From assembly GCA_026770705.1 (NCBI GenBank), contig JANJGN010000189.1, positions 186,001 through 250,000 on the forward strand: a DNA stretch of 64,000 nt. The letters are read 5' to 3'. Shown here piece after piece: positions 24,471 to 64,000 of this stretch (its first letter is position 1; each line of letters opens with the position of its first letter). The position numbers were made by a program, and so were the translations under genes. The stretch is from Isurus oxyrinchus (taxonomy: Eukaryota). The notes under the pieces were generated by a model. That model had not been told where the DNA came from and ran no database searches. It was given only the letters and a program-made list of their open reading frames with translations.

Positions 24471-26859
24471 CTACAGAGAAATGGAAACAGAAGACATCCT
24501 CACATTATTTACTGGCACTGATAGGGTTAAATTATTGAGCAGCCTCATTAGTGTCAGTCTTGTCTCAGTGGGTTTAACCCTCTCTCTCATGTCATCTGAA
24601 AGAAACCACCTATGGCAGTGCAGTGCTCCCTCAGTACTGACCCCCCCGACTGTGCAGCACATCCTCAATAGTGACCCTCTGTCAGTCTCACACTCCCTCA
24701 TTACTGACCCTCTGTCAGTCTCACACTCCCTCTGTACAGTGCAGCACTTCCTTAGCACTGACCCTCTGACAGTGCAGCACTTCCTTAGCACTGACCCTCT
24801 GACAGTGCAGCACTCCCTCGGAACTGACCCTCCATCAGTGCAGCGCTCACTCAGTACTGACCCTCCAACAGTGCAGCAATCCCTTAGCACTGACCCTCTG
24901 ACAGTGCAGCACTCACTCAGTACTGACCCTCCATCAGTGCAGCACTCCCTTAGCCCTGACCCTCTGACAGTGCAGCACTCCCTCAGTACTGACCGTCTGA
25001 CAATGCAGCACCCCCTCAGTACTGACCCTCCGACTGTGCAGTCCCCCGCCGGTACTGACCCTCTGACAGTGCAGCACTCCAAGACTGACCGTCTGACAAT
25101 GCAGCACCCCCTCAGTACTGACCCTCCGACTGTCCTGCCCCCCCGCCGGTACTGACCCTCCGACAGCTCGGTAATTTCTCAATTATGCCTGGTGGTCCTT
25201 TTAACTCAGAGCTGAGAGTTGCAGAGAATCGAGCACACATCCTGAACTGACACTTGCAGTGCAAGTACTGGGAGCGCGCTGGTCATTATCATGCTGCTGT
25301 CTGTGGGATCTTACTGTGCGCCAATGGCTGATTCTTTTCCCACAGTACATCAGTGACCTCACATGAAAGAAAAAAACCACTTGATTGTCTGCGAAACACT
25401 TTGGGACGTCCTGATGTGTTGGAAGGCGCTAGAGAAATGCAAGTCCTCTTTGTCTTTCACTCGATCCTCTAAGGTGTCTGTTGATTAACCAGCCTCTCGG
25501 TGTTTGATGTAGGCCTGGTTATAAACAGGTAGAAGGATCAAATATCAAAAGTGCTTTGGCTGACAGTCAAACCGATTGTGCATTCGGAGAGATTAGATAT
25601 GGTCTGCACACAATGACTCCAGTCTCTGGCACTGACTGCCGCCTGGGGTCTCCCTTCCACATAACACTCACAACTTGCATTTACACAGCGCCTCTGATAT
25701 TGCAAAATGTCCCCGCCCACATTACCGGAGCGTAAATCAGAGAGAAGTCTAACACTGAGTCACATATGGAGATATTAGGGTTAGGTGACCAAAAGCTTGG
25801 TCAAAGATGTCAGTTTTTAAGGAGCGTCTTAAAGGAGAGAGAGAGAGAGAGGCAGAGAGGTTAAGGGAGGGCATTCCGGAGCTCAGGGCCCCAGGCAGCT
25901 GAAGGCACGGCCACCAATGGTGGAGCGATGGGAATCAGGGGGACCCGGGAGATGCAGTAATGTCAGAGATTTTGGAGGAACATCGGGACCGGAGGAGGTG
26001 TTCTCCTGCTCCATATCTCTCTCTCTCTTCCTCTCATCCACTCCTCCTCTCCCTGTCTCTCTCTCTCCTACTCTTCCTCTCAATTGCCCTCTCTCCCAAT
26101 CTTTCTCTCCTCTCTCCCTTTTCCTGTCTCTCTCCCTCTCTCTCCCCTGTCTCCTTCTCCCACTCTGTATCTCTCCCTCTCTCTCACACTATTTTTGTAC
26201 CTTTCGCTCACTCTGTAACTCTCCCTTTTCTGTTAATTTCTCTCTCTTGGACAATCTCTCTTCCCTTTTCACTTTCCCTCACTCTGCATCACTTCTTTAA
26301 TTTCTCCCTCTGTCACTCTCTCCCACCTATGTTCTTTCCCTTTCACCCCTCCCCGTCCCACTCTCTGTCTCTCTCTTCCAATCCCTCCCTCCCCCATTCC
26401 ATCCCTCTCTCCGACTCTCGACTCCCAGCCTCTCTTTAACCCACTCCCAGGCTGGATCAGTCTCCCTCTCACTATTCCCGGCGTGGGTTACATTTAAAAT
26501 TCCTGTGGGGATATGTTCACTTCCTTGGAATTGCCTCTTCCCAGCTTTGCAAAAAAAAGTTGGGGGGGGCTCGATTTCAAACATGCCTCCTGAGTATAAC
26601 CGAGACAGACTGCCACTGAAATCAGCTTGAAATCAGAAAACTTTCTGTGGAAGAAACGAGCAGGGAGAAACCTTAAAATAAGGAATGAATTTCCACCTAC
26701 CGTGTCCGGGGAATCCACAGATTTCTCAATCGTCGAAGAACCTAAAGCAGTGTCAACCTGCAAAAAGAAAGAATTTATCAGGGAGAAAGTGAGAGGAGGA
26801 TTGAGGGAGAGGGAGAGAGAGAGAGAGAGGTACAGGAGAGAGAGAGGGGGAGGAGGACA

Positions 26860-27160
26860 GACTTGCATTTCTCTAACGCCTTTCACCACATCCCAAAGCA
26901 TTTCACAGCCACTGAAGGATGTTTTTGAAGTGCACTCACACTGTAGGAAATGTGGCAGCTGATTTGTGCACAGCAAGATCCCACAAATAGCAATGTGATC
27001 ATGGCCTAGATCATCTGTTTTTGGTGATGTTGGGTGAGGGATAAATATTGGTCCCAGGACACCGGGGAGAACACCCCCTGCTCTTCCTCCAAATAGTGGC
27101 TGTGGGATCTTTCACACCCGCCCGAGAGGGCAGACGGGGGACTCAGTTTAATGTCTCATT
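26860..27160 (-). mobile_element. SINE resembling the Deu-domain SINE family
   Basis: Core gctatttgtgggatcttgctgtgcacaaat…cacttcaaaa…aaaggcgttagagaaatgcaagt on the minus strand; copies at ~25280-25450, 37330-37590, 42700-42850, 53840-54105, 63410-63715. Family assignment is from recollection, not a search. Confidence 0.6.
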
Positions 27161-27479
27161 CAACATTGTTGAGCTCCCTCAGTACTAACCCTTTGACACT
27201 GCAGCACTCCCTTAGTATTAACCCTTCGATAGTGCTGCGCTCCCTCAGTATTGTCCCTCCATCAGTGCAGCTCTATTTCAGTACTAACCCTTCAACACAG
27301 CAGTACTCCCTCAGTACTGACCCTCCGACAGTATAGCACTCCCTCAGTACTGTCCCTCCAACAGCGCAACACTTCCACACTACTGACCCTCTGAGAGTGC
27401 AGCACTCCCTCAGCACGGAGCGTTGACCTACATTATGGGACTGAATTCCCTGGAGTGAGACTCAGACCAGTGATTTAGG

Positions 27480-28335
27480 TAGGGTTGTGGGGGCTGGAGG
27501 AGGTTACAGAGATAGGGAGGGTTGTAGAGGCTGTAGGACGTTACAGAGATAGGGAGGGTTGTAGAGGCTGTAGGAGGTTACAGAGATAGGGAGGGTTGTA
27601 AGGGCTGGAGGAGGTTACAGAGATAGGGAGGGCTGTAGAGGCTGTAGGAGGTTACAGAGATAGGGAGGGTTGTAAGGGCTGGAGGAGATTACAGAGATAG
27701 GGAGTGTTGTAGGGACTGTAGGCGGTTACAGAGATAGGGAGGGTTGTAGGGTCTGGAGCAGGTTACAGAGATAGGGAGGGTTGTGGGGCTGGAGGAGGTT
27801 ACAGAGATAGGGAGTGTTGTCGGGGCTGGAGGAGGTCTACGGAGATAGGGAGGGTTGTAGGGACTGGAGGAAGTTACAGAGATAGAGATTGTTGTAGGGG
27901 CTGGAGGATGTTTCAGAGATAGGGAGGGTTGTAGGGGCTGGAGGATGTTACAGAGATAGGGAGGGTTGTAGGGGCTGGAGGAGGTTACAGAGATAGGGAG
28001 GGTTGTAGGGGCTGGAAGAGGTTACAGAGATAGGGAGGGTTGTAGGGGCTGGAGGAGGTTACAGAGATAGGGAGGGGTGTAGGGGCTGGAGGAGGTTACA
28101 GAGATAGGGAGGGCTGTAGGGGCTGGAGGATGTTACAGAGATAGGGAGGGTTGTAGGGGCTGGAGGAGGTTACAGAGATAGGGAGGGTTGTAGGGGCTGG
28201 AGGAGGTTACAGAGATAGGGAGGGGTGTAGGGGCTGGAGGAGGTTACAGAGATAGGGAGGGGTGTAGGGGCAGGAGGAGGTTACAGAGATAGGGAGGGTT
28301 GTACGGGCTGGAGGAGGTTACAGAGATAGGGAGTG
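27480..28335. repeat. 37-bp minisatellite (ggaggaggttacagagatagggagggttgtaggggct)n
   Basis: Visible tandem units; also ~30985-31640, 61365-61470, 62215-63000. Confidence 0.92.
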
Positions 28336-28698
28336 GCTGAGGAGGGATTGAAAACAAGAATGAGAATTTCAGGGGAAATGACAGAAGGAAATGATGTTAA
28401 ATTCATAGAGGGCGACAATATTAAAGGCACGAACATAATAATATCAAACTGCGGAAGAGACCAGTCTATCTGGGTGGTAGACGTAGAGTCATGTGCAAGA
28501 AACACCTCACCCAGAGGGACATCTCTTAGCTTAACCTCGACAAGGAGAAGAAGTGACTCAGCTGCAGGGAGAGCAGCAAAGTCAGAGTGGACAAGACAAG
28601 TCGCCATTTCATCTGGGAGCTTCCCATCTCTGCCTGTCTCTTCTGATCTTCTGGCTCTGCTTTGATGCTTTGGTTTGTAACTAGAGGAGCTTCCTGCT

Positions 28699-28846
28699 CT
28701 TATACCTGAAACACTTGAAGGGGACAGCCGCGGGCGGGTAGCTGTGTGGTATCACACCCATTTCTGGATATTGCAGTGTCGATGTTCCCTGTCCCACTGG
28801 CCTGGGACCAGCAGTAAGGTCACTGGGACATAGACTGTCTGGCGCC
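28699..28846 (-). promoter_or_regulatory. TATA promoter with BMP/SMAD composite element GGCGCC-N5-GTCT
   Basis: TATAAG at 28704-28699, ~75 nt upstream of ATG 28627; minus strand 28846-28832 reads GGCGCC AGACA GTCT; GC-rich box between them. Confidence 0.6.
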
Positions 28847-29309
28847 GAGAACTATCAGTCCCTCCGCAACGCCCTTCACCTTGTGCAAATATGTGTTCAT
28901 ATTGATGCAACACAACATAGCAAAAACATAGGGGCTGGTTCTAATGTCGGCAAATCAGGTGAACCGCATGCCCCCTAACCCCTTACTCCTCTCATTGCTC
29001 CTCCTTCCTGCCAGACACTTACTATTTTACAAATTGTGTGCGTTGCTTTTATTTCGGACAAGGGGCCTCGAGGGGGAACTGATTTACGCTGAGGTTTAGG
29101 GGTTAACAGCCATGTCATGTGTTGATCGGTCAGTGTTTACCATGTGGAGACTGTCTGTCACCAGCTTTGTTAATGGTTTATCCAGGAACATTGAAGGGCA
29201 TGAACGTTCTTGCTTTGTATGGAACAAGTTACCAACTGGGTTCAGTCATCGACTCAGACTCACATCAACATAAACTGGCTTCTGACAGGTAAGTTTCTAT
29301 TACATGAGG

Positions 29310-29900
29310 GTAGGAGGAGGCCATTTGGCCCCTCGAGCCTGCTCCACCATTCAATGAGCTCATGGCTGATCTGCAAACTAGCCCCATATGCCTTTGTCCC
29401 ATCTCCTTTAATACCTTTGGATAACAAAAATCTATCAGTCTCACAGGTTTAAAATGAACAACTTGATCGTGCATCAGTTCCTGTTTGGGGAAGAGAGTTC
29501 CAAATTTCTCCCACCCTTTGTACTTCCTCATTTAATTCCTTTTTAGGCTCTGACCCCGAGTCCCAGACTCCCCCCAACCAGGGGAAATGGTTTCTCTTTA
29601 TCTCCCCCGATCTGTTCCCCTTAATATCATGCGAACTTTCATCAAATCCCCTGCTTAACATTCTAACTTCCAGGGAGGACAAGCCGAGTTTGTGTTTAAT
29701 CTCTCCTTGTGATTTAACCCTTGGAGTCCCGGTCTCATTCTGGTAAACTGACACTGCTCTCCCTCCGAGGTCAATATATCCTTCCTAAGGTGTGGGGCCC
29801 AGAATGTCTCACAGTGACTCCAGGTGTGGTCTAGCCAGGGCTTTATGTAGACTGAAGCATGACCTCTGCCCCCTTATATTCTAATCCGTGAGATAGAAAG
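29310..29900 (-). mobile_element. CR1-like LINE 3' fragment
   Basis: Minus-strand remnants GLEYKGAEVMLQ, KLGLSSLEVRML, WNSLPQ. Confidence 0.65.
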
Positions 29901-32029
29901 GGCAGAGTTCCAGAATTGTTGTGTTTATTTGACAACAGAATAACAGAGGAAGGTTTCCTCTCTGCCCTCTTCAGCCCCACTGGGAAGGTCAGGATGAGAA
30001 GGTTGGGCTGGGTCCCCTGTACTGGACACTCGCTGAATCTTCCAATGATAGTTCTGGGCTGGATTTCAAAACGCATAGACAAGGATTCAGTGTTCCATCA
30101 CATTCTGCCTTTGTCTCTTTTCCTCTCGTTCTCTTTCTCTACCATCCTCTCTCTCTATCTATCTATCTTTCTCCTCATTCTCTCCTGCTTCATCTCTATC
30201 ACTTTCTTTCTACTTCTTTGTGTGTCTCTGTCTGTCTCTCTCTCTCACTCTTTCTTTCCTTGTCCTTATCTCTTTCAGTGTCTCCCTCTTTCTCTCTCTC
30301 TCTCTCTCTCTAAATGTGACCCTCTCTAACAGTTTGGCCCAGTACTCTTATTTCCCTGTTTTACTGGTGTTCCATTTGAAGGTATACAAGACCAGATCAG
30401 ACCAGAATGTTTATTTTCCAGTGTTTACTGTGTTTTTTTCATTCTGGGTGTCTCTCGACTCTGTCTGTCCCTCTCTGTCCTTTTATTTCATTCTTTCATG
30501 TGATGTGGACATCACTGCCTAGGCCAGCATTTATTGCCCAACCCTAATTGCCCTTGTTCAGAGGCCACTTTTTAAAAGTGAACCACATTGCTGTGGGTCT
30601 GGAGTCACATGTAGGCCAGACCAGGTAAGGACAGCAGATTTCCCTCCCTAAAGGGCATTTGTGACCCAAATACAAGAATCAGCAATGGTTTCCTGGTCAT
30701 CATCGGACTTTTAATTCCAGGTTTTTATTGAATTGAAATTCCACCAACTGCTGTGGTGAGATTCTAACCAGGGTCCCAGGAGCATTACACTGGGTCTCTG
30801 GATTACTGGTCCAGTGAAAATACCATCAGGCCAACACCTCCCCACTCTTCCCTTCCACCATCTTTCACACTTGTTCTCTCTCTCTCTCACTCTCCTTCTC
30901 TCTTCTCCCTCTCTCAGTCTCTGTCTGTCTCTCAATCTCTCTATCGCTCTCTCTCTCCCTGTCGCTCTCTCTCTGACTGTCTCCCTCCCTATATCTGTAA
31001 CCTCCTCTCTCTGTCCCTTTCCTCCAGCCCCTACAACCCTCCCTATCTCTGTAACCTCCACCAGCCCCTACAATCCTCCCCATCTCTGTAACCTCCTCCA
31101 CCTCCCACAACCCTCCCTATATCTGTAACCTCCTCCACAAGCCCATACAATCCTCCCTATCCCTGTAACAACCTCCAGCCCGACAACACCCCTATACATG
31201 TCACCTCCTCTAGCCACTGTAACCCTAATAATCTCCCAAGCCTCCACCAGCCTTGACAATCCTGCCCATCTCTGTAACATCCTCCAACCACCACAACCCT
31301 CCCTATTTCTGTAATCTCTTCCAGTCCCTACAACCCTCCCTATCTCTACAACCTGCTCCACCCCCTGCAACTCGCCCTATCTCTGTGTCATCCTCCAGCC
31401 CCTACAACCCTCCCTATACCTGTAACCTCCTCCAGCCCCTACAACCCTCCCTATCTCTGGAACAGCTTCCAGCACCTACAACCCTCCTTATCTCTGTAAC
31501 CTCCTCCAGCCCCTACAACACTCCTTATCTCTGTAACCTCCTCCAGCCCCTACAACCCTCCCTATCTCTGTAACCTCCTCCAGCCCCTACAACCCTCCCT
31601 ATCACTGTAACCTCCTCCAGCCCCTGTAACCCTCCCCATCTCTTGAAGGGTTCTCAAAATTTCCAACTGTCAAGGAACCCTGGGTTGGTGAGCGTGACCC
31701 CTGACCTCTCCTAGTGCAATTTAGTTAGGGTTTGGGGGTGGGACAAGGGTAAGGGCATTAGTAGCGTGATTCTCCCTCGTTATGCCGTGTGTTCCCTATT
31801 CTTAACTCAGTGTACTTTGTAAGTCTGTATAATCTCAGTGTCATCCTAATGTTAGAAGTTCATTTGTGACTTCAGTAAACTCAGTTTTTGTCTTGCACCA
31901 AAACCAGTTGTCTGCTGCACTTTGTGACAAGCCCCGAATAAGTCCAAGGTCTAGAACCCAGGGAGTGGGAGTGATTCAGACGGCTCAGAAGTCGCAGGTG
32001 AAGCTGACACACACCACCACACCCTACAA

Positions 32030-32430
32030 GGGGCTGAATGGCCTCCTCCTGTTCCTGTGTAATGGGCTTCAGTGGCTGAATGGCCTCCTCCTGTTCCTGT
32101 ATAACGGACATAAGTGGCAGAATGGCCTCCTCTTGTTCCTGTGTAACGGACATAAGTGGCAGAATGGCCTCCTCCTGTTTCTGTGTAACAGTCTTGAGGG
32201 GGCTGAATGGCCTCCTCCTGTTCCTGTGTAACAGTCTCGAGGGGGCTGAATGGCCTCCTCCTGTTCCTGTGTAACAGTCTCGAGGGGGCTGAATGGGCCT
32301 CTTCCTGTTCCTGTGTAACAGGCTCGAGGGGACTGAATGGCCTCCTCCTGTTCCTGTGTAACAGGCTTGAGGGGGCTGAATGGCCTCCTCCTGTTCCTGT
32401 GTAACAGGCTCAAGGGGCTGAATGGCCTCC
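32030..32430. repeat. ~41-bp minisatellite (ggctgaatggcctcctcctgttcctgtgtaaca…)n
   Basis: Visible tandem units; mirror copy at ~60655-60975 has fewer units. Confidence 0.9.
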
Positions 32431-32699
32431 TTCTGCACTGTAAACTTGTTGTGATACTGTAACTGCCTCTTTGGTTTCATTCAGCTGAATCTTCATCTCT
32501 TCAGTCTCTTCCTTGTATCTCTTGCCTTCCTCCTGGAACATTGGACATGGTTGGGTCTTCCCTGCCAACTGTTTCTTCAGTTTGCTCAGAGCGGCACAGA
32601 ATTCGCTTTCTTTCTCTTCAGGATTTTCCAGTGGAACCAACTCTGACCTGAGGGACACTTGCAGCCTGTGAGGATGCTTCAATTCTTCAAACTCATTCC

Positions 32700-33805
32700 G
32701 AGATACACTCTCATATTCCCCCAGCAACTCAGCAACTCCTCCAGTGAAACATTTCAGAGCAGCTGAGCTTGGTTTTCTGGAACCAGTCTCGGCCCAGAAG
32801 ACTAGGGCCCTCACCTGTCGCTATGATCACTGGAAGCTGGGCTGTCTGCTGCCTGTAGGACACAGGTACTGGGATGAGGTCCTTTCCCTGTATGGATTCT
32901 CCAGTGTGTGTCTTCAGCTGATCCATTGTTGGCTCTAAATTCAGCGTCTGGGTTCCTTCATTTAGCTGTTTAAATGTGGGCTCTTCCACCACTGTGTCTG
33001 AGGCTCCCGTATCTGCCCCATTACTAGTGGCTGCCCATTCACTTGGGTTGTGATGGTTATAGGTTCAGTTTTTACCACTGTGACATTGGACAGGGAATAG
33101 ACATCGGTATCAGCAGCTTCAGGCTCTGTGATATTATTCACTTCCATCATGTTGGTGCACTGTCTGATAGACTGTCTCGATTTCACCCTGCATTGCTTTA
33201 TTACCCACCCCTTTCTTGTGGCAGTGATGGCCTTCTGCCCCCTTGAACCTGCAGGTGTCCAGTACGTGCTCACTCCCCCCCACATCGAGAACAGGCCAAC
33301 TTCGGAGTTGCTGCTGAAATACTCCCACGAAGCCTTTTAGTTTCTGGAGCGGCAGAGACTGTCTCTCGCTTGGCGGCTGTCTCTCTCTCTCTCTCTCCAG
33401 TTTGAGCCTCACGCCTGGTGGTTGTTTCCTGTCCCAGCTGAGGAATGGCGCCATGTTGTACATCCTGTAAATCCCGCCAGTCTCTCCCAGCACTTTCCAT
33501 GCCTAGCGCTATTTCCATGGTGCGCTTCAAATCGATGTCGGCTTCTGCGAGTAAACGGCTCTGAATGGCGTTGGGGTGAACGACACAAACCAATCGGCCC
33601 CGCAACATGTCATTGAGTGTGTCTCCGAGGTCCCAGTGCTCAGTCACCTGCTTCCACTTCACTGTAGAGGTTGCGATGGACTCTCCCTGGGCCCTTACTC
33701 TGGAGTTAAACTTAAACCTTTTCATTATTACCCACGGCTTCAGCTGAAAACACATCTTCATGAGGTCGACTAATTGGTGAAAAGATTTAGAATTGGGTGC
33801 AATAC
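32700..33805 (-). mobile_element. Ty3/Gypsy-type gag-protease remnant
   Basis: Gag-like KRFKFNSRVRAQGESI…LNDMLRGRLVC…IQSRLLAE; zinc-knuckle-like CSRCGGEH…C; aspartic protease DTGA at 33013-33002 and PSLLGRDW; frameshifted, no RT or LTR seen. Confidence 0.85.
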
Positions 33806-34954
33806 ACGTCACTGTCTTCAGCTCTGAGACTGTCAATCCTCACCGAACAATTCTTCCCTTCCAAGTTGCCGATTATTTTAGCACGTCCCACGAATGTGGC
33901 CATCCCATAGTTGGGATCTTTGGTGTATGTGATGGTATATTTCCATCTATACCAATATTTATACCAAGCTCCGTGCAGTGCTGTGTAAGAGTGGGAAGGA
34001 AAGTCAAAGCTACACGGAATAACCACACAAGAGCTGCTGATGGCCCTCCGAGGCAGCGCCTTCATAGACCATCCCTCTGACGTCACTCCTGAAAGGCAAC
34101 AAGGGAGGGGACTGAACATCAAAAAGCAGAATATTACTTCAATGGAGAGAGTCTACAGAATGCGGTACAGAGGGATCTGGGTGTCCATGTACATGAATCA
34201 CAGAAAGTCAGCATTCAGGAACAGCACGGAATGAGGAAGGCAAGTGGAATGTTGGCCTTTATTGCAAAGGGATGGAGTATAAAAGGAGGGAAGTCTTGCT
34301 ACAACTGTACAGGGCGTTGGTGAGATTGTATCAGGAGCAGTGTGTACAGTTCTGGTCTCCTTACTTAGGGAGGGATAGACTCTGCATTGGAGGCAGTTCA
34401 GAGGAGGATCACTGGGCTGATTCCTGGGATGAAGGGGGTTTGTCTTATGAGGAAATGTTGAGCAGGTTGGGCCCTGTATCCATTGGAGTTTAGAAGAATG
34501 AGAGGTGATCTTATTGAAACATATAAGATTCTGAGGTGGTGGGGGGTTTGACAGGGTGGATGCTGAGGGGATGTTACCCCTTGTGGGGGAATCCTGTGAA
34601 GCAATAAGGTTGTTTTACTGCATTAAAGGTGCTGTATAAATGCACTGTCATTCCTATTGAAACAAGCTCTCTGATGCACAAACAGAAAATGCTGGAAAAA
34701 CACAGCAGGTCTGACAGCATCTGTGGAGAGAGAAACAGAGTTGGTGTTTCGAGTCCGTATGAGACTTTTTCTTTTGCTATATTCTCTGACTCGCTATTCA
34801 CTCACTCTCTGTGTGATCACTAACCCTGTTCTCTAAAATTAAATGTTCACTTCCTCACTCCAGGAAAGAATCCAATTCCCTGAGTTCCGATCAGTAATGA
34901 ATTTGTACCTTGCAGCAAGCTGATGAAGATCAATATCAGACCGACCTCTCCCAT
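33787..34954 (-). pseudogene. Gene C: second Siglec-type gene, leader + truncated V-set exon
   Basis: Leader 34954-34909 MGEVGLILIFISLLQG; V exon from 34088 with SCVVIPCSFDFP…HGAWY…FVGRAKIIGNL…NCSVRI…EDSDVY, then fused to gag sequence and stopped at 33789-33787. Confidence 0.85.
34160..34590 (+). mobile_element. CR1 LINE 3' fragment in the leader-V intron (mirror at ~58520-58950)
   Basis: MEYKRREVLLQLYRALVR…CVQFWSPYL…GLSYEE. Confidence 0.8.
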
Positions 34955-35219
34955 CTTCAGTACCTCATCTAAATGGAAATGATAAAGACAGAGACTTTTT
35001 CAGAAATTGTCCCCAGTGTTTCTTCCTCAAACAACAACTTGTGTTTAAATGGCACCTTTCAGTGAGTTAAACAGCCCCAGGGAATAAACTAATGTCAAGA
35101 CAAGGAAGGAGAGATTGAGAAGGGACATCGCAAACCGATTCACCAAACACGGCAAAAATTCATTGTTCCCTCACTCCCTGTGCTGGGTGTCCAGCTTTTT
35201 CTCTCAGTGAGTTTAGTCC

Positions 35220-35528
35220 TCACAATCTCTATCTATCACACTCTTCTGCTCTCTCTCTCTCTCTCACACACACATTCTCTCTCTAACACTCACAATCTCT
35301 CTCTATCACACTCTTCTGCTCTATCTCTCTCTCTCACACACACATTCTCTCTCTAACACTCACAATCTCTCTCTATCACACTCTTCTGCTCTATCTCTCT
35401 CTCTCACACACACATTCTCTCTCTAACACTCACAATCTCTCTCTATCACACTCTTCTGCTCTATCTCTCGTTCACTCACACACATTCTCTCTCAGACACT
35501 CACATTCTCTCTCTATCACACTCTTCTG

Positions 35529-35560
<32 letters not shown>

Positions 35561-36320
35561 TTCTCTCTCTAACACTCACAATCTCTCTCTATCACACTCT
35601 TCTGCTCTATCTCTCTCTCACACACATTTTCTCTCTAACACTCACAATCTCTCTCTATCACACTCTTCTGCTCTATCTCTCTCTCTCACACACACATTTT
35701 CTCTCTAACACTCACAATCTCTCTCTATCACACTCTTCTGCTCTATCTCTCTCTCTCACACACACACATTCTCTCTCTAACACTCAATCTCTCTCAAATG
35801 CACTCTTCTGCTCTATCTCTCTCTCACACACACACCTTCTCTCTAACACTCACAATCTCTCTCCATCACACTCTTCTGCTCTATCTCTCTCTCTCACACA
35901 CACATGCTCTCTCTAACACTCACAATCTCTCTCGCACTTTTCTGCTGTATCTCTCTCTCTTTCACACACACACATTCTCTCTCTAACACTCACAATCTCT
36001 CTCTATCGCACTCTTCTGCTCTATCTCTCTCTCTCACACACACACATTCTCTCTCTAACACTCACAATCTCTCTCTATCACACTCTTCTGCTCTCTCTTT
36101 CTCTCTCACACACACATTCTCTCTCTAACACTCACAATCTCTCTCTATCACACTCTTCTGCTCTATCTCTCTCACACACACCTTCTCTCTCTAACAAACA
36201 CAATCTCTCTCTATCACACTCATCTGCTCTATCTCTCTCACACACACATTCTCTCTCTAACACTCACAATCTCTCTCTATCACACGCTTCTGCTCTCTCT
36301 CTCTCTCACACACACATTCT
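35220..36320. repeat. ~60-70-bp CT/CA-rich satellite
   Basis: Unit ctctctctaacactcacaatctctctctatcacactcttctgctctat(ct)n(ca)n. Confidence 0.92.
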
Positions 36321-37739
36321 CTCTGTCTCCCTCCCTCAAATACATTCTCTCTCTCTCTCAGACACAAACACTCTCTCACACACTCACACACTTTCCCTAA
36401 AACTAACACAATCTCTCTTTCTGTCAAGCACACACTGTCTCTCACACACACACACTCTCTCTCTCAGACACACACATTCTCTCTCTCTCAAACATTTAAC
36501 ATTTCTCTTCATCTCGATCTTCTGCTGTCTCCCTCTTTCTCTCCCTCGCACACACACACACTCTCTGTCACAAACAAACTCTCTCTCCCACACACTCTCT
36601 CTCATGCACTCTCACAAGCACACTCTCTCCCTCATATACAAACACTCTCCCTCACACATGCACACACTCTCTCTATCTCTTTTTCTCTCTCACACAGTCT
36701 CTCTGTCTCTCTCTGTCTCTCAGACACTCTCTCTCTCTCTGATACAGAATGTTTTAAGACCTGCTCATGATTTCAGCTCAAAACCTAGGTAGATTCTCCC
36801 CAGTGAGGGAGTGGTGAGGGAGTGCTGCACTGTCAGAGGATCAGTACTGAGGGCGTGCTGCACTGTCAGAGGGTAAGTACTGAGGTAGTGCTGCACTGTC
36901 AGAGGATCAGTACTGAACACAATGTCCATTCAGAACAGCTCGGTCCCCGATCAGAGAAACAGCCTCAGACAGAACCAACTGACGCTGGAATCCATACAAT
37001 TCATCAACGTGTTGGGAGTTAGTTTGATGTCGGAGATGGAGTGTTACTGGGAAGGATGGAAGCCGTCAGGATGAACAGCTCGATGTACGACAAGGAAAGG
37101 ATGAGCTAAGAGGGGTTGGTCACGGACAGACGGAGCGTGTGAAGACTCAACAAGCTAATGGCAGGTGAAGAGCTGGAAAGGTGTCTTTTCAACACAAGGT
37201 TTAGACACAGAACTCGATGTTTGATTGGGTATTTCAAACCAGAGAAACTCTTTACAGGGTGAATGGACCTTGTCAATAATCCATCCAGCCAACCTCGCCT
37301 GGAGATTAGTCCAATATTAGACACTAAACCGAGTCCCCCGTCTGCCCTCTCGGGCGGGTGTGAAAGATCCCACAACCACTATTTGGAGGAAGAGCAGGGG
37401 GGAGATCTCCCCGGTGTCCTGGGACCAATATTTATCCCACAACCAACATCACCAAAAACAGATGATCACATTGCTGTTTGTGGGAGCTTGCTGTGCGCTA
37501 ATTGGCTGCTGCGTTTCCTACATTACAACAGTAACCACACTTCGAAAAAAGGGTGTACTCAACTGTAAAGTGTTCTGGGACATCCAGAGACCATGCTGTA
37601 CAGAAGAGATTTGACAGGAGCAGCAAGTGTTTTACTTACAGGAGAATGAGTCCCCAGGGTTGTAGAGTCAATCCTGTCAGATGAATGTCTAACTGGAGAC
37701 ACTTCAGGGAGCTGATCTCATTCTGGAAATGTTCAGTTT

Positions 37740-37960
37740 ACCAGGATCGGAGGAGAGATGATCTTCCTCTCCTGACTGCATCGGACACGAGGTGAACTGG
37801 CTCTGGGAGGAGGGTCAGTGTTAACCCAGTTTTTCTGTGTTTGAGGGAGATGTGAAACTGGGGAAGTCACGTGGTTTTTTGGTGTGGTCACTCCATGTCT
37901 TTATTTGGTGCAGCACTCATTTAGTTCATGTCGTTGTTTCAATGCTACAAAACCACAGCG
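37740..37960 (-). promoter_or_regulatory. Putative promoter/5' non-coding exon of gene C (mirror at ~53470-53685 for gene D)
   Basis: Clustered GGGGAAGT (PU.1/ETS), CACGTG (E-box) and TGTGGT (RUNX) motifs followed by a donor-like CCTG|gtaaac; motif-level inference only. Confidence 0.35.
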
Positions 37961-39190
37961 CATTCTGGACTATTTCTGCCTGACCTGCTGTCAGATACAC
38001 GCAGTCTGACAGAGAGGCGGAAAAGTGGTCCCTAGCAACGTGTGAAACTGTAAACTCGGCTCAGTCAGAATGCACACGCAGACACACACACACACGTACA
38101 CACATTTTCTCTTGTTCATTCTTTTAAACACACACACTCCCTCTCAAATACACACACCCTCTCTCGCACACTCCTTCTCTCAAACACATACACCCTCTCT
38201 CTCAAACACACACACACACACGCTCTCACGCACACGCTCTCTCACATACACACTCTCTCTTTCACACACACACTATCTAACACCCACAGATTCTCTCTCT
38301 TTCTTTCTCTCTCACACATAAGCTCTCTCTCTAACACAAACATTCCCTTTCTCTCACACACACTCTCTCTCTCACACAATTCAGCTACCTCACTCTCTCA
38401 TGCGTACACACTCTACCTCTCTTTTGCTCTCTCACACATTTTCTCTTTCTCTCTATCCTTCTCTCTCGCACACATACGCACTGTCACTCTCTCACACACA
38501 CATTGTCTCTCTTTCTCACACACGCACTCACTCTCTCTCTCTCTCTCTCCAAGACAGCAGGTTGGGGTTTTCAAACCATCTCAAGGTTACAGCTCAAAAC
38601 CCAGATGGACTCTCCCCAGTGAGGGAGTGCTGAGGGAGTGCTGCACTGTTGGAGGGTCAATATTGAGGGAGTGCTGCACTGTCAGAGGGTCAGTACTGAG
38701 GGAAACCCTGCTCTATCAAAGGGTCAGTACTGAGGCAGTGCTGAACTGTCAGAGGGTCAGTACTTAGGGAGTGCTGCACTGTCAGAGGGTCAGTACTGAG
38801 GGAGTGCTGCACTGTCAGAGGGTCAGTACTGAGGGAGTGCTGCACTGTTGGAGTGTTAGCACTGAGGGAGTGCTGCACTTCCAGAGGGTCAATACTGAAG
38901 GAGTGCTGCACTCTCAAAGCGTCAATGCTGAGGGAGTGCTGCACTGTCAGAGGGTGGACACTGAGGGAATGCTGCTCTGTCAGACCTGCCATATTTCAGA
39001 TGATGTTTGAAATTAGCAACATGCCTCATGTATAATTATATATCATCAACTCAAAATAAATAGATTATTCCTGTACATTTCACTTTACTGTAAATTGTTT
39101 GCAGTTTCATCTCCTTAGAAGCCAGGCTTGTGTGATCACTATTTTTAAATAACGTTAATAATAAAGATGCGACAATCCACATGCACACAT

Positions 39191-39232
<42 letters not shown>

Positions 39233-39935
39233 ATGTGTAGGCACATACATGCACATTTACACACAGTCATACACGTGCAAAAACCTACACAGAAACATAC
39301 ACACACTCAACTCACACACACACACTCACACGTGCACACACATACACATACACATGTACACACATTCACTTATGCACAGAAATATACACAAAGACACACG
39401 CACATTTGCGCAAACACATACACACATGCACACACAGACACATGCATGCATACTCACACAAACATACTCACATATGTAGAAACACAAACACATACACATA
39501 AACACGCGTGAGGTCCCTCTCCTCTCTCAGGGCTGCACTGGAGTCTCGGTGTCAGCTCCGATTCTGTGTTGAAGGAAGGTAAACTCCAGATCAACAAGAC
39601 CCTGAACTGGATGAGCAACCTCCTGAACAGAGAATTGTAGATTTACCCCTCAGTGCTCCATCGATCAAATACAATTCATTCCCGTAAATCCCTTGGCAAA
39701 ATCCTGAGGATGTGAAAGTTTCTTTCATTCTAGGTGAACAGCACCTCTACTGGTGGGAGAATGTAACTGTAGTTTGACTGTTTACATCGGCAGTGCCCAT
39801 TATAAATTTGACAGTGGAAGTTATATGGAGGGAAGGTATCTGGAAATGCATACAGACATCAGATACACAGAGATGATGCATGGAGTCTTGCTGTGCACGC
39901 TGCTTGCTCACATTAAACACTTGATTTGTTCTTAG

Positions 39936-40217
39936 ATGCTCCACAGAATCTCACATTTACTTCTCTTGAAATGATTAATGCTTCATCGATCAATATAATT
40001 GAGGGGAATTCTGCAGTGATAATCTGCTCTGTCGAGAGCTTCCCAGCTTCTAACCTGACGTGGCGACATCTTAATGTCCCAATGAACAGAACAAGTTCCA
40101 ACAATGAGCTGTGGTTGGTGATTCCTCACGTTACATCCAGGGACACTGGAGACTATCAGTGTGTGGCAGAGAATGAACATGGAGCAGTGGAGGGGTTCAT
40201 AACCATCACTGTGGAAT
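39936..40217 (+). CDS. Gene B Ig repeat exon 1
   Basis: 282 nt, ttag/gtgagt, open frame. Confidence 0.85.
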
Positions 40218-40969
40218 GTGAGTGTACACAGACTTCAACATCTCTCACACACACACTCACACATGCAAAAACACTCATGTGTAGACACAAACATGCACGC
40301 TTACACACAAACATACGTTCAAACACATACACAGAAACACACACAAACTCAACTCANNNNNNNNNNNNNNNNNNNNNNNNNNNNNNNNNNNNNNNNNNNN
40401 NNNNNNNNNNNNNNNNNNNNNNNNNNNNNNNNNNNNNNNNNNNNNNNNNNNNNNNNNNNNNNNNNNNNNNNNNNNNNNNNNNNNNAGACACGCGCATACA
40501 CACAAATACAAACTCACGTGCAGAAGTACACACACAAGTGTGAGCTCCCTCTCCTCTCTCAGTTCTGCACTGGAGTCATGGTATCAGCTCCCATTCTGTG
40601 CTGAAGGAAGGTAAACTCCAGATCAGCAAGACCCTGAATTGGATGAGCAACCTCCTGAACAGAGAAATGTAGATTTAGCCCTCAGTGCTCCATCGATCAA
40701 ATACAATTCATTGCCTATCAAGCCCTTGGGGACATCTTGAGAGTGTTAAAGGATGTTTCTTTCATTCTAGAGGGTTAGCAACTCTACTGGTGGGAGGAAG
40801 CAACTGCAGTGTGACAGTTTACATAGGAAGTGTCCATTATAAATATGACAGTAATTTTTCATGAGGGAAGGTACCTGGAAAAGCATTCCAACATCAGATA
40901 CAGAGAGATGATGCATGGAGTCTTGCTGTGCACTACGCTTGCTCACATTAAAATCTTTATTTCTTTTAG

Positions 40970-41250
40970 ACGCACCCAGAATCTCTCAATTAATTCTCTT
41001 GATATGATTAACGCTTCATCGATCAATATAATTGAGGGGAATTCTGCAGTGATAATCTGCTCTGTCGAGAGCTTCCCAGCTTCTAACCTGACGTGGCGAC
41101 ATCTTAATGTCCCAATGAACAGAACAAGTTCCAACAATGAGCTGTGGTTGGTGTTTCCTCACGTTACATCCAGGGACACTGGAGACTATCAGTGTGTGGC
41201 AGAGAATGAACATGGAGCAGTGGAGGGGTTCATAACCATCACTGTGGAAC
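40970..41250 (+). pseudogene. Gene B Ig repeat exon 2, frameshifted
   Basis: 281 nt; acgcacccagaat lacks one base relative to the …cca cag aat of intact copies, giving TGA at 41005-41007 in the spliced frame. Confidence 0.8.
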
Positions 41251-42059
41251 GTGANNNNNNNNNNNNNNNNNNNNNNNNNNNNNNNNNNNNNNNNNNNNNN
41301 NNNNNNNNNNNNNNNNNNNNNNNNNNNNNNNNNNNNNNNNNNNNNNNNNNNNNNNNNNNNNNNNNNNNNNNNNNNNNNNNNNCACACATGCATAATTATC
41401 CACACACAGTCATACACATACAAACACATACACAGGAAAATACACACCCATCTCAAACACACACACACATTCATGCCCACACATAGACACACACATGCAC
41501 ATACTCTCACTCATGGACAGACCTAGACACACAGACACATGCGCATGCGCACACACAGACACACGTGTGCATACACACACAAACACACTCACATGTGCAG
41601 AAACACAAACACACAGATACACACACGTGAGTTCCCTCTCCTCTCTCAGTGCCGCACTGGAGTCTTGGTATCAGCTCCGATTCTGTGTTGAAGGAAGGTA
41701 AACTCTAGATCAACAAGACCCTGAATTGGATGAGCAACCTCCTGAACAGAGAATTGTAGATTTACCCCTCAGTGCTCCATCAATCAAATACAATTCATTG
41801 CCTGTCCAGCCCTTTGCGAAATCCTGAGGATGTGAAAGCAAGCTTCTTTCATTCTAGATGGACAACACCTCTACTGGTGGGAGAATGCAACTGCAGTGTG
41901 ACAGTTTACATAGGCAGTGTCCATTAAAAATGTGGCATAAGACGTTATCCTGAGGGAAGTTACCTGGAAATGCATTCAGACATCAGATACAGAGAGATGA
42001 TGCATGGAGTCTTGCTGTGCAATAGGTTTGCTCACATTAAACATTTGATTTGTTTTTAG

Positions 42060-42341
42060 ATGCACCACAGGATCTCTCATTTACTTCGCTTAATATGATT
42101 TACGCTTCATCAATCAATATAATTGAGGGGAATTCTGCAGTGATAATCTGCTCTGTCGAGAGCTTCCCAGCTTCTAACCTGACGTGGCGACATCTTAATG
42201 TCCCAATGAACAGAACAAGTTCCAACAATGAGCTGTGGTTGATGATTCCTCACGTTACATCCAGGGACACTGGAGACTATCAGTGTGTGGCAGAGAATGA
42301 ACATGGAGCAGTGGAGGGGTTCATAACCATCACTGTGGAAC
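42060..42341 (+). CDS. Gene B Ig repeat exon 3
   Basis: 282 nt, ttag/gtgagt, open frame. Confidence 0.85.
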
Positions 42342-43158
42342 GTGAGTGTGGAGATACATTTGTTTGTTTGTTGTCTCCGTGGTCTCCGTGGAGCCATTGG
42401 GATCGTGTTGTTTTTAATCCAGTTTTCTTCAATCCTCGCTCAGTCCACGTTATCCACACATCCAATTTTTCCTCTCCCTTTCTGTTTTTGCTCTCAGTTT
42501 CTCCTTCAATGGTTGTGAGGACAAGGCTGTCAGGTCTTCGTTTCCAATCTCCATACTTGACGACCTTTCTCTCTCTAACTGTCCTGAACAACCCTTTTAA
42601 TTGCTGAACTTCTCATTCTTTAATTGATAAATATTATATATAAATGTTACATGGATTACTTTGAAATGCAACACCTGTATTCATAAATTGCTTAGAAATT
42701 ACTAAACATTCAACAGCCAGTGAAGCATTATCGAAGTGAGCACACTGTTGTAATGTAGGAAACACAGGTACTGATTTGTGCACAGCAAGATCCCGCAAAC
42801 CACCATGTGATAATGACCTGATAGTCAATTATTTCAGTGAGGTTGGTTGTTACATGTGTAGAGACTACATACCCTTTAGGGAGGGAAGCATGTCTCGATG
42901 TGGATGTGACTCCAGTCTCAGACACCAACATGGTTAACTCTGACCTGCCCTCTGAACTGGTCTCCCAGTTTGGGACAAACCAGTGGTTCAGGAGGAAGAC
43001 CCCCCACCACCTTCTCAAGGGGAAACTAGGGATGGACAATAAATGTCAGCATTGCCCGAGAATGAGTATTTAAACATTGAGTGAGTGTATCGCTTCTCGA
43101 GATACATCGGAGCATCATTGTAAACCTGTAGTGCAGTAATTAATGGCTGTTTTTACAG

Positions 43159-63869: not shown

Positions 63870-64000
63870 GTAGGTGGAAATTCATTCCTTATTTTAAGGT
63901 TTCTCCCTGCTCGTTTCTTCCACAGAAAGTTTTCTGATTTCAAGCTGATTTCAGTGGCAGTCTGTCTCGGTTATACTCAGGAGGCATGTTTGAAATCGAG

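Follow-up and report, generated by a model that had tools for sequence, protein, structure and literature searches.

Two hepcidin pseudogenes of Isurus oxyrinchus belong to a large and apparently undescribed hepcidin expansion interleaved with Siglec genes

Hepcidins comprise both an iron hormone and antimicrobial peptides, and HAMP1 genes, mammalian HAMP included, consist of three phase-0 exons. In the accessible text of the sources cited here, hepcidin is described as single-copy in nearly all mammals, with multi-copy defence forms mainly in percomorph fishes (PMC6240063); teleost counts are given as 3-6 in several species (PMC6240063) and as 2-14 per species in a table of 14 fish (PMC10608450), and seabream gene names run up to hamp2.14 (PMC11043163). 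In sea bass, ferroportin is not regulated by Hamp2 (PMC5665920), and those croaker Hamp2s that are poorer in arginine showed no antibacterial activity (PMC6240063), so far as the available portions of these papers report. A nurse shark plasma paper names hepcidin once in its available text (PMC9207270), and the accessible part of a comparative review holds no shark hepcidin detail (PMC6795676); we found no description of a shark hepcidin expansion in the literature searched, outside which most subscription journals lie. Here we analyse a 64,000-nucleotide stretch of the I. oxyrinchus genome (assembly GCA_026770705.1, contig JANJGN010000189.1, positions 186,001 to 250,000; hereafter the window), in which the original prediction proposed a dead, duplicated, hepcidin-like gene within a Siglec cluster. 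Its two hepcidin copies are part of an unusually large hepcidin expansion, apparently undescribed, copy 1 itself being an ordinary pseudogene.

The proposed hepcidin identity was borne out. The prediction had suggested looking just beyond the window for an exon encoding an RxKR site and eight cysteines, and such an exon is present in copy 2, 2.3 kb past the window end, where it reads GSLLQRQKRMGRQQLCRFCCNCCNWREPNETCGLCCRY (Table 1). With its RQKR site it scores 29.2 bits against Pfam PF06446 (cut-off 27), hepcidin 1s6w is the sole PDB entry that it matches with E of 1 or less (weak, E 0.26), and intact paralogs splice the same exons. That the gene is duplicated is likewise correct as regards the inverted second copy at 61704-64000, but falls well short of a family that numbers at least 121 copies.

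Judged from its sequence, copy 1 is a hepcidin pseudogene, dead as proposed, with a broken exon-1 donor and no exon 3. The predicted signal-peptide exon starts at the expected ATG but has 31 codons, not 30, and the peptide quoted for it carries F13, which belongs to copy 2, copy 1 having S13; on an intact copy the exon-1 hydropathy peak is 2.5. What had been read as a phase mismatch after exon 1, which ends in phase 0, arises because the first base of the donor has changed from G to T, judged against 70 paralogs (AGG/GTAAG) and two intact-donor genes on another contig, C34 (AAG/GTAAG). Use of the GT one base upstream would meet a stop at codon 36, and no joint using it is among the splice joints listed; a third ATG in another frame would restore the phase, but by inspection provides no signal peptide. 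The 57-nt phase-0 exon 2 is present with AG/GT ends. The stretch ending …DRVK, proposed as a coding third exon, is intron 2 of the intact copies, its acceptor at 25514 serving only a minor, stop-containing cryptic exon (joint depths 844 and 510 in run X1, introduced below, one contig each, with sides of fewer than 30 letters); the donor of that exon is provided by an intron-2 insertion (L081 3878-4032) present in 28 of the 88 copies read. Copy 1 can be aligned with an intact copy only as far as about 24928, inside a 33-bp satellite, with no exon 3 after it, and elsewhere in the 64-kb window only short acceptor-like matches to exon 3 were found; the same exon-3-less tail occurs in 16 of the 88 copies read. 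Copy 2, having lost its donor though exon 3 is intact, is probably a pseudogene as well.

Throughout the assembly, expanded-type copies were counted by exact donor patterns, giving 70 with a GT donor and 51 with TT, 121 in total as a lower bound. Their first exons are spread over 15 small contigs, C34 not among these, and contig C52 alone has 39 of the copies; a 421-bp promoter and exon-1 piece has 132 candidates, the best 40 of which, as scored, are all 99-100% identical. PF06446 gave 97 matches among 150 scored, 78 of them over the cut-off (2 on C34, 76 on small contigs). After 12 were left out of the exon pairing (2 on C34, 10 weak ones elsewhere), 46 of the other 85 stand behind a GT copy, 31 behind a TT copy and 8 behind neither, and because of these eight the copy counts are lower bounds.

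All 70 GT copies and 18 of the 51 TT copies (88) were read. Forty-one of the 70 GT copies are intact genes, with three exons, canonical junctions and eight cysteines, thus having the spliced signal, propeptide and mature-peptide layout that window copies 1 and 2 lack; the remaining 29 have other defects (24 without an exon 3 within 6.2 kb, 5 with frameshifts or bad acceptors). The intact copies, 17 of which are on C52, encode 21 different mature peptides with the eight cysteines in the C-CC-CC…C-CC order of hepcidin, and all 41 retain an N-E-T N-glycosylation sequon. The furin site, RX(K/R)R, is RQKR in 32, RQNR in 7 and HQNR in 2, and the expanded peptide is predicted to be secreted and furin-cleaved. 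PF06446 scores are 31.6 bits for the intact copy L081 and 37.6 for a C34 gene. An AlphaFold2 model built from a single sequence without an alignment has two helices and no hairpin (predicted local distance difference test 71, predicted template modelling score 0.38), and protein homologue searches returned either no candidate or spurious ones (one repetitive 577-aa match and one match at 0.76).

The copies are not well explained as pure haplotigs or assembly duplicates, which their pairwise divergence does not support. Since mean divergence is 1.3% among 82 copies with exon 2, and only 3 of 3321 pairs are identical over 1480 columns, most would be distinct recent paralogs, though some may be alleles; among 30 C52 copies compared, every pair differs by 3 or more. 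On the copy tree the TT donor requires 9 changes, versus 14 when shuffled (the donor base being left in the alignment), so that it is clustered but mosaic, and a single origin is rejected.

Splicing of the predicted introns is seen in public contigs. Four runs of one sample (organism A), presumed to be RNA although none is recorded as such, hold 72-97% of the sampled words. In run X1 each of the two introns is marked by exact GT..AG joints, found in 11 and 9 contigs respectively, and run X4 has the joint at the second intron; neither joint was found in runs X9 and X10. For exon 3, 410 of the 639 contigs in X1 match the expanded type at 99% or better, in several paralog variants, and C34-type sequence occurs as loose ends, contig depths not being a measure by which the two gene types can be ranked. 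Several paralog variants occur in X1-X3, including a form with a 6-nt deletion. In organism B an exon 3 of the expanded type is present that differs at 11 of 291 bases (depth there gives no copy number), and the expanded type is therefore not confined to the I. oxyrinchus assembly.

The genome holds two hepcidin types. The two C34 genes, whose peptide is MSHLSICMYCCGCCNKKGTKKTCGYCCKL, resemble HAMP1 and mammalian HAMP in their three phase-0 exons, furin site, eight cysteines, GGCGCC element and Siglec-FFAR neighbourhood, and only they have the Q/M-S-H-L/I-S N-terminus of HAMP1. Teleost peptides for comparison came from the accessible parts of PMC5665920 and PMC6240063, together with PDB 1s6w; with teleost HAMP1 the C34 peptide has SHLS, YCC, KG and CGYCC in common. 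The expanded type, unlike HAMP1, lacks the SHLS start, beginning MGRQQL or variants, and has its GGCGCC module close to the TATA box. It resembles teleost HAMP2 (sea bass Hamp2, the bass peptide of 1s6w, croaker Hamp2-1 to 2-5, seabream hamp2.1-2.14) as a multi-copy diversified class beside a conserved HAMP1, without SHLS and with a CRFCCNCC…PN…CG[VIL]CCR core, sharing CRFCCNCC, PN and CG[LI]CCR with sea bass Hamp2. Unlike teleost HAMP2, it has at least 121 copies, 41 of them intact, carries an 8-residue loop, is co-amplified with Siglecs, and appears derived from the HAMP1-like gene of its own genome, to which it has about 90% non-coding identity. That identity, with the loop length common to its own HAMP1-like genes, argues for an origin separate from percomorph HAMP2; the expanded type is likely convergent with teleost HAMP2 and not orthologous to it. 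The copy number exceeds several-fold the largest hepcidin numbers in the accessible text of the literature compared.

The mature peptide has changed at an accelerated rate. Between one C34 gene and one intact expanded copy, 30 of 87 bases differ in the mature region, compared with 90 of 942 non-coding bases (9.6%) and a nonsynonymous divergence (dN) of 0.067 across the remaining coding sequence. A comparison inside the family covered 38 full-length intact copies, without the three that have the 6-nt deletion: in the mature region 14 variants change an amino acid, none at a cysteine (nonsynonymous diversity, piN, 0.046), exons 1-2 have 4 (piN 0.0015-0.0025), and flanks give 0-0.019. Because the excess in the mature region is significant over non-coding sites (Fisher p=0.03) but not over synonymous ones, diversifying selection on the mature peptide is only suggested. 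Among the 41 intact copies net charge spans 0 to +4 and is +2 in 25 of them, whereas the C34 type carries +5.

The promoters of the two types also differ. The exact GGCGCC-N5-GTCT element resembling a bone morphogenetic protein (BMP) response element, and the minus-strand TATAAG, are present in copy 1 as predicted, the former as the sole such match in the window. A special meaning of the exact GTCT half is not supported, however, as only 7 of the 88 copies read have it, the others having GTCA (63), GGTGCC (16), GGCA (1) or no match (1); the C34 genes carry GTCG at this position. Among the 41 intact copies GGCGCC is exact in 29 and GGTGCC in 11. The module lies 142 bp upstream of the TATA box in the expanded type; in the C34 genes the distance is about 3.4 kb for one and 2.8 kb for the other. 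A 691-bp piece taken from just upstream of the core promoter in C34 has a full-length match only at the two C34 genes among the best 40 of 136 candidates. Loss of promoter sequence on the way to the expanded type would be a simpler reading than an insertion. An 8-base direct repeat is found near both ends of the stretch missing from the expanded promoter (28790-28810, minus strand, compared with the C34 promoters), and the expanded-promoter junction sits a few bases past it. Human HAMP, in the accessible text, has GGCGCC elements at -84 and -2255 (PMC3879105).

Embedding in a Siglec cluster, as proposed, is evident: hepcidin copies are interleaved with Siglec V exons, 145 of the 150 scored Ig_CD22 (Siglec V) matches (the best 150 of 810 candidates) are on hepcidin contigs, and all along the Siglec contigs a hepcidin copy recurs about every 114 kb. 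On C34, the two hepcidin genes stand among Siglec V and C2 exons, and about 30 kb from them lies an FFAR1-like gene, an arrangement matching the human order HAMP-MAG-CD22-FFAR. Synteny with Siglec and FFAR genes is present; LSR matches are on C18, C452 and C1620, not C34. Those at G000:C452:60361 and C1620:70134 have identical scores, pointing to some haplotig or segmental duplication in the assembly. The FFAR1-like open reading frame (L135 274-1285; G000:C34:15,265,273 onward) is split over two frames and is possibly a pseudogene or an assembly error. Over 390 kb of C34 there is a single run of N, a gap of 100 N at G000:C34:15,110,243, about 26 kb past the point where the Siglec exons at the HAMP locus end; this gap is a candidate home for the roughly 13 Mb of unplaced Siglec and hepcidin contigs.

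CD33-related Siglecs and defensin copy-number arrays are immune clusters that evolve by birth and death. The present array resembles them in its segmental and inverted duplications, many pseudogenes and mosaic copies, and differs in that amplification within one region has affected both a receptor array and a gene for a secreted peptide.

In the window, the V exon downstream of copy 1 has sialoadhesin, MAG and CD33-type Siglecs as its best matches. Near-identical tandem C2-set Ig exons of Siglec type, eleven at 99-11795 (minus strand) and three at 39917-42604 (plus strand), are spaced about 1.1 kb apart and read as a very long recent stalk expansion. A degenerate V-set exon (24 bits, under the cut-off) occurs in each inverted arm, at 33790-34152 (minus strand) and 58914-59300 (plus strand), followed by broken open reading frames that are retroelement-like by eye.

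Table 1. Positions of hepcidin and Siglec features in the window and of copy 2 exon 3 beyond it.
Feature	Position	Strand	Remark
GGCGCC element, BMP-response-element-like, within ~235-bp module	28832..28846	-	GGCGCC-N5-GTCT pattern match
TATA box, TATAAG	28699..28704	-	homologous TATAAAG in both C34 genes
Hepcidin exon 1 coding sequence, 31 codons, predicted signal peptide, ATG at 28627	28535..28627	-	
Broken donor, TT in place of GT	28533..28534	-	common to 51 copies
Minisatellite arrays in intron 1, units of approx. 37 and 33 bp	27174..28335	.	
Hepcidin exon 2, 19 codons, propeptide	26701..26757	-	spliced in run X1
Intron-2 stretch (…DRVK) with minor cryptic acceptor	25455..25514	-	
Breakpoint zone in 33-bp satellite, exon 3 absent beyond	24610..24928	-	
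Copy 2 promoter and exon 1 (exon 1 = 61923-62015), also TT donor	61704..62015	+	
Copy 2 exon 2	63813..63869	+	
Copy 2 exon 3, intact, 8-Cys, beyond window	G000:C189:252274-252390		
Inverted segmental duplication arm carrying hepcidin 5' end	27544..38051	.	partner about 53375-64000
V-set exon of Siglec type with its first C2 exon, on the strand of copy 1 and downstream of it	12348..13435	-	

Taken together, we consider it rather probable that the window holds two pseudogenes of a recently amplified hepcidin and Siglec array of at least 121 hepcidin copies, the 41 intact genes of which likely serve in defence, as in HAMP2, and that the C34 pair likely serves in iron regulation. A duplicate of a C34 gene would have lost about 3 kb of promoter, bringing a distal BMP-type element beside the TATA box; its mature peptide would then have changed rapidly, with loss of the SHLS start; and unequal crossing-over, inversion and gene conversion would have multiplied a unit of roughly 110 kb containing Siglec and hepcidin genes, copying live and dead forms alike in a birth-and-death manner. 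Amplification by segmental and inverted duplication with conversion is suggested by the inverted repeat, the mosaic tree and the truncation found in 16 of 88 copies; the defence role is proposed by likeness to teleost Hamp2. More tentatively, and with somewhat greater doubt than conviction, we propose that the shark lineage independently evolved the HAMP1/HAMP2 split known from spiny-rayed fishes, fused a distal BMP enhancer to the TATA box, enlarged the new gene together with its Siglec receptors, and has dozens of expressed, diversifying and possibly glycosylated defence peptides.

Several observations weigh against this interpretation. Most copies are broken, 51 of 121 without a donor and 29 of the other 70 with other defects, dead forms (TT donor, exon-3-less) have been amplified too, and some copies may be alleles. 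The splicing evidence comes from one sample of presumed RNA, and the promoter change has no outgroup to polarise it as a deletion or an insertion. The proportions of nonsynonymous and synonymous sites differing from C34 in the mature region are equal (pN = pS = 0.345, with 14.5 synonymous sites), so that dN/dS is not above 1; within the family, nonsynonymous versus synonymous variants give p=1.0, and exons 1-2 have no synonymous variants either. The low net charge recalls the inactive low-arginine croaker Hamp2s, and although the sequon is present in all 41 intact copies, glycosylation itself is only predicted.

The main rival, which we regard as unlikely, is that the hepcidin genes hitchhiked on selection or drift acting on the Siglec array, their number and variation being neutral even if some copies are expressed. 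The regular occurrence of hepcidin along the Siglec contigs, at about 114 kb per copy, is as expected on this account, as are the broken state of about two thirds of copies, the amplification of both the dead donor and the exon-3-less form, and the lack of significance of nonsynonymous versus synonymous variation in the mature region. Neutrality fits poorly, however, with retention of all eight cysteines and the sequon in 41 of 41 intact copies while adjacent codons take up to four states, with the concentration of variation in the mature peptide, and with the presence of several variants in the spliced runs; moreover, hitchhiking accounts for copy number, but not for divergence from the C34 type. 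A retained iron-hormone role for the expanded type is improbable, whether as a BMP-driven, dosage-amplified ferroportin ligand with an altered N-terminus or as a decoy modulating the C34 hormone. Such a role would suit the kept GGCGCC module, which is exact in 29 of 41 and stands beside the TATA box where the C34 proximal promoter has been lost, the low peptide charge and, from the accessible parts of the papers, the BMP elements driving the iron response of human HAMP (PMC3879105) and the one croaker Hamp2 that raised macrophage iron (PMC6240063). The SHLS start is lost, however, 11 of 41 intact copies have GGTGCC, and diversification would be expected more for a target that varies than for the one ferroportin of the host. 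An ancient HAMP1/HAMP2 pair predating the shark-teleost split, the rest of the gene being homogenised by conversion, would explain diagnostic residues matching teleost HAMP1 and HAMP2 and the 3 synonymous differences among 12 codons with unchanged residues, but is highly improbable given that 7 of 8 cysteine codons are identical between the types, that both have the 8-residue loop absent from the teleost peptides compared, that the flanks are only 9.6% different, and that HAMP2 is reported mainly from percomorphs in the available text of PMC6240063.

If the interpretation as an amplified defence family is true, the switch from iron hormone to defence peptide would have evolved twice. The C34 and expanded types would then provide a natural pair for studies of ferroportin binding and, via their distal versus proximal BMP elements, of promoter logic, and the 21 mature peptides may be of value as natural variants from cartilaginous fish, whose antimicrobial peptides are little described.

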